Shown here one piece after another: positions 25,977 to 26,776 of a stretch of 64,000 nt of DNA. The notes below the pieces were generated by a model that was not told the DNA's origin, did not search any database, and saw nothing but the letters and a program-made list of their open reading frames with translations. This stretch comes from Escherichia coli (GTDB taxonomy: Bacteria; Pseudomonadota; Gammaproteobacteria; Enterobacterales; Enterobacteriaceae). The stretch lies in assembly GCF_002854065.1 (NCBI RefSeq), contig NZ_CP024147.1. The stretch is one strand, 5' to 3'. The translations under genes and the position numbers were made by a program. The first letter of the stretch is position 1, and every line of letters starts with the position of its first letter.

Positions 25977-26312
25977 ATGCCCGCTAATGCTCGCTCTCAC
26001 GCTGTACTGACCACTGAATCAAAGGTCACGATACGCGGACAAACAACTATCCCCGCGCCAGTGCGTGAGGCTTTAAAACTGAAGCCAGGCCAGGACAGCA
26101 TTCATTACGAAATTCTGCCTGGTGGGCAAGTATTTATGTGCCGACTGGGAGATGAACAGGAGGATCATACTATGAATGCATTTTTGCGTTTTCTGGATGC
26201 AGATATCCAGAACAACCCGCAAAAAACTCGTCCATTCAACATTCAACAAGGAAAGAAACTTGTCGCTGGCATGGACGTCAACATTGATGATGAGATTGGC
26301 GACGACGAATAA
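25977..26312 (+). CDS. prlF: Type II antitoxin PrlF (SohA)
   Basis: 111-aa ORF ending in an acidic tail (DDEIGDDE); stop overlaps the start of yhaV (TAATGG). Confidence 0.9.
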   Translation: MPANARSHAVLTTESKVTIRGQTTIPAPVREALKLKPGQDSIHYEILPGGQVFMCRLGDEQEDHTMNAFLRFLDADIQNNPQKTRPFNIQQGKKLVAGMDVNIDDEIGDDE

Positions 26313-26776
26313 TGGATTTTCCACAAAGGGTTAATGGTTGGGCGCTATATGCTCATCCCTGTTTTCAGGAAACCTACGACGCTTTAGTTGCCGAAGTCGA
26401 GACATTAAAGGGAAAAGATCCTGAAAATTATCAGAGAAAAGCCGCCACAAAGTTATTGGCGGTAGTCCATAAAGTGATTGAGGAGCATATCACGGTCAAT
26501 CCATCATCACCGGCATTCCGTCATGGCAAGTCGTTAGGCTCTGGGAAAAATAAAGACTGGTCACGGGTAAAATTTGGTGCTGGTCGTTATCGTCTCTTCT
26601 TTCGTTATAGTGAAAAAGAGAAAGTCATCATTCTGGGATGGATGAACGATGAAAACACGCTGCGCACCTACGGTAAAAAAACAGATGCCTATACCGTATT
26701 CAGCAAAATGTTAAAAAGAGGACATCCTCCTGCCGACTGGGAAACCCTCACCCGAGAGACAGAAGAAACCCATTGA
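26312..26776 (+). CDS. yhaV: Type II toxin YhaV (ribosome-dependent mRNA interferase)
   Basis: 154-aa ORF translationally coupled to prlF. Confidence 0.9.
   Translation: MDFPQRVNGWALYAHPCFQETYDALVAEVETLKGKDPENYQRKAATKLLAVVHKVIEEHITVNPSSPAFRHGKSLGSGKNKDWSRVKFGAGRYRLFFRYSEKEKVIILGWMNDENTLRTYGKKTDAYTVFSKMLKRGHPPADWETLTRETEETH

Follow-up and report, generated by a model that had tools for sequence, protein, structure and literature searches.

The question raised by this locus is whether two overlapping reading frames between garD and agaR are the toxin–antitoxin (TA) pair prlF-yhaV and, if so, how their promoter is controlled and how synthesis of the toxin is tied to that of the antitoxin. The prlF-yhaV pair has been a characterised TA system of Escherichia coli K-12 since 2007, and the physiological role of its chromosomal copy is still debated in the literature. 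The window, i.e., the whole 64-kb stretch of DNA analysed, contains an intact wild-type copy with a promoter, a candidate operator and a two-copy TTCAACA hotspot. The 7-bp duplication at this hotspot recurs in laboratory evolution and alters both the susceptibility to antibiotics and the activity of Lon (PMC7686311, PMC12107188).

The prlF-yhaV locus and its surroundings

The two genes and the terminator that precedes them are as follows.

25977..26312, + strand: prlF (sohA), antitoxin and autorepressor, 111 aa; DNA-binding domain at the N-terminus, probably of the AbrB/SpoVT type, and an acidic tail at the C-terminus
26312..26776, + strand: yhaV, toxin, 154 aa, with a predicted RelE/ParE fold, a ribosome-dependent mRNA endonuclease (activity: PMC7781912, PMC11980606)
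25851..25876, + strand: garD intrinsic terminator hairpin, AAAACATGGC-6-GCCATGTTTT followed by a T-run, at the start of the 148-nt spacer

Both ORFs begin with ATG, have exactly the limits given in the preliminary description, and coincide with the RefSeq annotations of prlF and yhaV in a collinear genome. The description had named the pair prlF-yhaV and proposed alignment with the characterised proteins as the check. PrlF is identical to E. coli K-12 MG1655 b3129 in 111/111 aa, and YhaV is identical to b3130 in 154/154 aa. PrlF matches the Pfam family PF15937 PrlF_antitoxin (6e-42, 142.2 bits against a gathering cut-off of 32) and the NCBIfam equivalog NF007429 (170 bits, cut-off 125). YhaV matches PF11663 Toxin_YhaV (8e-54, 181.9 bits, gathering cut-off 35), and no model was returned for the toxin from NCBIfam. 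With proteins identical to those of K-12 and Pfam scores far over the cut-offs, the identification is borne out. The level of nucleotide divergence is also low: the 1002-nt region including both intergenic spacers has five differences from MG1655.

The genes form an antitoxin-first bicistron on the same strand, with the toxin directly downstream and an overlap of 1 nt. The garD hairpin is the only convincing terminator in the scanned region, and none was found between prlF and yhaV; two weak terminator-like matches within the coding sequences (5–6 bp stems) are no more than occur in shuffled sequence. On its upstream side, the prlF-yhaV transcription unit is delimited by the garD hairpin. The spacer between garD and prlF is 148 nt long, and agaR lies downstream of yhaV in convergent orientation at a distance of 54 nt. 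One more hairpin was noted in this convergent gap.

26789..26823, no strand assigned: weak hairpin TGCCCGC...GCGGGCA in the 54-nt yhaV/agaR gap

It was considered as a possible shared terminator and rejected, being indistinguishable from shuffled sequence (z = -1.58).

A megablast search with positions 25830-26830 revealed the locus in 5167 of 5426 complete E. coli genomes, nearly always as a single chromosomal copy, and the matched loci are annotated prlF and yhaV. The single plasmid-borne place among the 5188 places found in this search is the 353-kb E. coli plasmid NZ_MG591698.1, in which a chromosomal-type prlF copy (233278-233610) encodes a 100% identical protein; this may reflect plasmid capture of a chromosomal segment. 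In E. coli EC23HZZ201, which lacks prlF-yhaV, IS1A is located 16 bp past the last matching base, just beyond the garD terminator (L020, 3001-3900), the next gene after it is yraI, and the entire prlF-yhaV-aga-yraH stretch is deleted. IS1-mediated deletion is the probable cause in some, at least, of the 259 genomes that lack prlF-yhaV. The prlF-yhaV pair described here is thus an already known and ordinary one; it is a correct annotation and no discovery.

The gene order in the window is yqjF...tdc...rnpB...garKRLP-garD-prlF-yhaV-agaR-kbaZ...rsmI...pnp-rpsO, collinear with that of strain SCU-316 apart from local differences in two places. The galactosamine PTS IIC gene, agaC, is split by an inserted IS1 element (36087-36853, approximate ends). 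The ORFs of this element (36141-36416 and 36335-36838) encode InsA domains (Pfam, 4.7e-31) and the IS1 DDE transposase (5.9e-78), and a duplication of about 10 bp flanks it on either side. The best matches listed for the 4.5-kb agaC stretch cover only 83% of it, that is, they are without the insertion; the spacing in strain CUWW06 suggests that this strain does carry the element. The agaW-agaE-agaF-nagA(agaA) segment (29676-32900) is intact in a genome collinear with the window, so that the window strain has, the IS1 in agaC apart, a full N-acetylgalactosamine cluster. The annotation of K-12 MG1655 has agaW and agaA as pseudogenes left behind by a deletion (L002, 6702-7626). Rfam models scored at the gathering level for rnpB (RNase P RNA, 19191-19567, - strand), the SraG sRNA (58700-58871, + strand), the rpsO (S15) leader (59101-59215, - strand) and naRNA4 (60728-60798, - strand), all of which are expected in this chromosomal region of E. 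coli.

A second type II TA-like locus had been proposed near 39 kb. It is real and consists of a PF05973 toxin followed by a PF01381 antitoxin.

39125-39577: Gp49/HigB-like toxin (Pfam PF05973, 1e-20)
39601-39903: XRE-type HTH_3 antitoxin (Pfam PF01381, 4.7e-16)

Translation of this toxin likely begins at the ATG of position 39131; the product would then have 148 aa, the length annotated in strain TUM13936. The module is located between agaI and rsmI, a place taken by the yraHIJK fimbrial operon in SCU-316, the genome compared. Of the 5426 complete E. coli genomes, 12 carry at least 80% of the module, and partial matches were found in 76; it is a rare accessory element.

Promoter, candidate operator and its core in homologues

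Two overlapping elements were found in the spacer upstream of prlF.

25912..25940, + strand: predicted sigma-70 promoter, -35 TTTGCA (25912-25917), 17-nt spacer, -10 TATAAT (25935-25940)
25905..25920, no strand assigned: candidate PrlF-YhaV operator, perfect palindrome TAATGCAttTGCATTA (TAATGCA-tt-TGCATTA), from a custom scan

The promoter agrees with the consensus at 10/12 positions and is the best predicted sigma-70 match in the region and the only strong one. The palindrome contains its -35 hexamer. A conserved core, AATGCANNTGCATT (AATGCA-NN-TGCATT), occupies positions 25906-25919 and has 12 specified bases in 14 nt. The custom scan was needed, as the default inverted-repeat search (minimum length 8) returned the garD terminator only and missed a palindrome with 7-nt arms. 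According to a review, the PrlF2-YhaV4 complex binds to a palindromic site within the promoter that precedes prlF (PMC7781912), and from the sequence we infer that the palindrome at 25905-25920 would be this published operator. A full-text search with the operator string returned only one unrelated mammalian paper. The preliminary description had suggested examining the promoter for a palindromic operator; the candidate now found lies at the -35 element, and its core is kept in distant homologues.

Short palindromes are not rare, and those with arms of at least 7 nt occur in about 3.6% of shuffled 100-nt promoter regions. The palindrome by itself is therefore weak evidence, and the argument is carried by its recurrence across species. 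The same rate would favour a chance inverted repeat, and the reported repression of prlF by CpxR (PMC9600279) would favour the site of another regulator, such as CpxR itself. We consider it very improbable that the palindrome is one of these rather than the PrlF-YhaV operator. The core has one match in the 64-kb window against 0.01 expected. It stands directly upstream of prlF-yhaV pairs in hosts that share the TA pair but not the E. coli regulators, PrlF-like genes without a YhaV partner lack it, and the review cited above places the complex on a palindrome in just this promoter. In a diverged E. coli allele of the locus, with 24 differences per 1002 nt, the five intergenic SNPs all lie outside 25905-25940, although their number is too small for significance alone.

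The recurrence of the candidate operator was followed in plasmids. In a tblastn search, PrlF matched 332 plasmid records, almost all of them at identities well under 60%, and twelve loci were taken. Nine of them were counted as pairs, with a YhaV-family toxin annotated or, for locus L008, presumed to follow. The core was found upstream of prlF in eight of these nine diverged pairs, which belong to gamma- and alpha-proteobacteria and a cyanobacterium. Two tandem copies are present in each of the Pantoea ananatis, E. coli IncF plasmid and Pantoea agglomerans loci, one exact copy in those of Pseudosulfitobacter, Pacificitalea and two Bradyrhizobium plasmids, and one copy with 1 mismatch in that of Synechocystis. 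The Acetobacter pair has another palindrome, GTAAGG-6-CCTTAC, in the same place. The core is absent from an orphan PrlF-like gene on a Klebsiella plasmid (L011, 802-1173) and from a PrlF-family gene paired with VapC on a Paracoccus yeei plasmid (L015, 904-1544). These two loci suggest partner swapping among AbrB-type antitoxins, with the operator changing along.

The core does not occupy a fixed place in the promoter. The alpha-proteobacterial and cyanobacterial loci have it in the stretch that separates a -35 element, TTGACA, from the -10 element, whereas on the E. coli chromosome it covers the -35 element; at either position, it would block RNA polymerase. The tandem motifs of Pantoea ananatis (L005, 538-569) and the E. 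coli IncF plasmid (L006, 652-683) precede the annotated prlF start by about 180-330 nt, and no convincing ORF was found between the motifs and that start. This distance could be explained by a long leader, a mis-annotated start or a far-upstream promoter.

Tentatively, the core AATGCA-NN-TGCATT may travel with prlF-yhaV across gamma- and alpha-proteobacteria and cyanobacteria, its position in the promoter varying by lineage, and, if undescribed, it may represent a DNA-recognition code kept across phyla in a mobile TA family; we regard this generalisation as possible rather than probable. If it is true, the core would be a usable marker for true PrlF-YhaV operons and, as a practical by-product, could separate them from PrlF-like antitoxins paired with other toxins. 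The cross-phylum conservation of the operator core is only a mildly new point.

The gene junction and the translation of yhaV

The elements that bear on the translation of the two genes are listed below.

25963..25967, + strand: prlF Shine-Dalgarno (SD) sequence AAGGA, 9 nt before the ATG, anti-SD duplex -5.3 kcal/mol
26235..26248, + strand: tandem TTCAACA x2 inside prlF, wild-type two-copy state, site of the recurrent prlF1-type 7-bp duplication
26310..26314, + strand: TAATG stop/start overlap, prlF TAA at 26310-26312 and yhaV ATG at 26312-26314, A26312 shared

The preliminary description had the prlF stop and the yhaV start sharing TAATGG at 26309..26314. The overlap itself is correct, and the coordinates have to be moved one base to the right: TAATGG is located at 26310..26315, and bases 26309..26314 read ATAATG. 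An overlap of 1 nt is among the commonest junctions of operon genes and is unremarkable alone. The junction is unchanged in the diverged E. coli allele, and in the plasmid homologues anything from an overlap of 4 nt to a gap of 23 nt is seen. Close apposition is thus typical, and the exact overlap is no constant of the family.

Anti-SD pairing over the 22 nt that precede yhaV amounts to -2.7 kcal/mol. Of the 12 + strand genes scored in the window, yhaV has the weakest pairing, and values for the remaining 11, including prlF, range from -5.3 to -8.5 kcal/mol. The antitoxin-to-toxin mRNA ratio is about 1.1 by RNA-seq (PMC5535158), which points to a single transcript and puts differential expression at the level of translation. 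The prlF1-type allele provides one more line of evidence. The recurrent duplication of TTCAACA has been located 272 bp after the start codon (PMC7686311). A third TTCAACA copy was computed to cause a frameshift with a stop at 26285-26287, 24 nt before the yhaV ATG. PMC12107188, which cites Schmidt et al. 2007, describes the prlF1 frameshift as polar on yhaV and as derepressing the operon. Polarity of this kind is what coupling by termination and reinitiation predicts.

Alternatively, yhaV could have a ribosome-binding site of its own, or a promoter inside the 3' end of prlF, and be expressed without dependence on prlF; the TAATG overlap would then be mere compact packing with no part in regulation. 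A promoter-like TTGATG-18-AATAAT (26284-26313) is present at the end of prlF, and the homologues tolerate gaps of 2 to 23 nt, the Pantoea ananatis gene having a strong SD of its own (-8.7 kcal/mol). The internal match, however, agrees at 9/12 positions, and about two such matches are found in shuffled sequence for the region; moreover, its -10 element overlaps the yhaV ATG, so that a transcript starting from it would be without a start codon. This internal promoter was ruled out. Independent expression is also opposed by the weakest anti-SD pairing among the genes scored, by the single transcript that the mRNA ratio indicates (PMC5535158) and by the reported polarity of prlF1 on yhaV (PMC12107188), and we judge it to be rather improbable.

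Translation of yhaV coupled to that of prlF, as the preliminary description had suggested from the overlap, is consistent with the overlap, the very weak yhaV SD and the published prlF1 polarity, all of which agree; the junction is thus a candidate for coupling, which presumably proceeds by termination and reinitiation.

Protein folds, proposed mechanism and known systems

The YhaV structure was modelled using AlphaFold2 from a 10-sequence homologue alignment, and the model has a pLDDT of 89.7 and a pTM of 0.86. In a Foldseek search of the PDB, the top 20 matches were all RelE, HigB, ParE-type (PfiT) or related small toxin-fold proteins, with a probability of at least 0.96 and E-values down to 2.9e-4; YoeB and ParE appeared lower in the list. 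The TM-score with Mycobacterium tuberculosis RelE2 is 0.82 normalised to the target, and E. coli RelE was also matched. The model supports a RelE-like fold of YhaV, with an alpha-helical hairpin against an antiparallel beta-sheet, and its membership in the RelE/ParE (BECR-fold) superfamily, where the literature also places it (PMC11980606). Two weaker signals were discarded. The sequence match of YhaV to ThreeFoil is weak, covers a short repeat and has no meaning. The YhaV profile against PDB sequences found nothing but designer pentatricopeptide-repeat proteins, matched over 24 residues with the score summed across repeats and no single stretch significant, and this result is spurious. A PDB sequence search revealed no entry for PrlF or YhaV.

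For PrlF, a 13-sequence profile matched N-terminal domains of the AbrB family and SpoVT in the PDB at profile positions 11-53 (E = 3.3e-4 to 5e-3). Matches to Pfam MazE_antitoxin (19.5 bits, cut-off 24.7) and TIGR01439 (27.1 bits, cut-off 28.3) remained just below the threshold. The PrlF monomer model is poor (pTM 0.41), and Foldseek returned nothing for it with E below 0.49. This poor model is uninformative, as it is what can be expected of an obligate intertwined dimer whose tail folds only on the toxin.

The following mechanism is proposed. One sigma-70 promoter (25912-25940) would drive a bicistronic prlF-yhaV mRNA, from which PrlF would be translated efficiently owing to its own Shine-Dalgarno sequence. 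Most YhaV would come from ribosomes finishing at the prlF TAA and starting again at the ATG that overlaps it, and such coupled reinitiation would hold toxin output at or below antitoxin output. PrlF would dimerise via its AbrB-like N-terminal domain and neutralise YhaV with its C-terminal part; the PrlF-YhaV complex would bind TAATGCAttTGCATTA over the -35 hexamer, thereby silencing its own promoter. YhaV set free by the loss of PrlF would cleave mRNA on translating ribosomes, leading to growth arrest. For the identical K-12 proteins, toxicity, neutralisation, binding to the promoter palindrome and ribosome-dependent cleavage are reported in PMC7781912 and PMC11980606, with reference to Schmidt 2007 and Choi 2017; PMC5535158 also belongs to the literature on this mechanism.

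Another view of the locus is that growth arrest by the toxin is not its main role, and that prlF modulates Lon-dependent proteolysis and envelope stress, with the TA behaviour being secondary. The historical prlF/sohA phenotypes speak for this, as does the 7-bp prlF duplication, which increases Lon activity, acts as a suppressor of export and degP defects and is favoured by selection in laboratory evolution (PMC12107188, PMC7686311, PMC7781912), and the TTCAACA x2 hotspot is present in the window. These phenotypes, however, are those of a frameshift allele that also derepresses the operon, whereas the allele in the window is wild-type. Nor do they conflict with the TA mechanism, which was shown directly for identical proteins. 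This view appears unlikely. The locus is almost certainly the E. coli chromosomal prlF-yhaV type II toxin–antitoxin operon in its native garD/agaR position, and most likely works as proposed above.

The closest known system is PrlF(SohA)-YhaV of K-12 MG1655 itself (b3129/b3130; Schmidt et al. 2007; Choi et al. 2017), which has the same flanks, 148-nt upstream spacer, promoter, palindrome and TAATG. Nothing functional differs between the two copies, the substitutions being three synonymous ones in the coding sequences and one downstream. Outside the locus, the window strain differs from K-12 in its intact agaW-agaE-agaF-nagA and in other strain-specific changes.

The 39125-39903 module resembles prlF-yhaV in being type II with a toxin of the RelE/ParE superfamily; in contrast to prlF-yhaV, its toxin gene comes first, and its antitoxin is an XRE-type HTH protein. 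MazE-MazF of E. coli would share with PrlF, judging by sequence, an AbrB/MazE/SpoVT-type swapped-hairpin antitoxin domain and autorepression via a promoter palindrome. The toxins of these two systems are unrelated: MazF has the CcdB/MazF fold and is ribosome-independent, whereas YhaV belongs to the RelE/ParE fold. RelB-RelE and the RelE/ParE (BECR-fold) superfamily are the nearest on the toxin side, as the predicted YhaV model matches RelE, HigB, YoeB and ParE, and YhaV is described as cleaving mRNA at the A site in a ribosome-dependent manner (PMC11980606). However, the identity of YhaV to RelE/ParE structures is only 9-17%, and it is a longer protein (154 aa) with an extra N-terminal helical hairpin. 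Unlike RelB, the PrlF antitoxin is AbrB-like by sequence and not ribbon-helix-helix, and a PrlF2-YhaV4 stoichiometry has been reported for its complex with the toxin.
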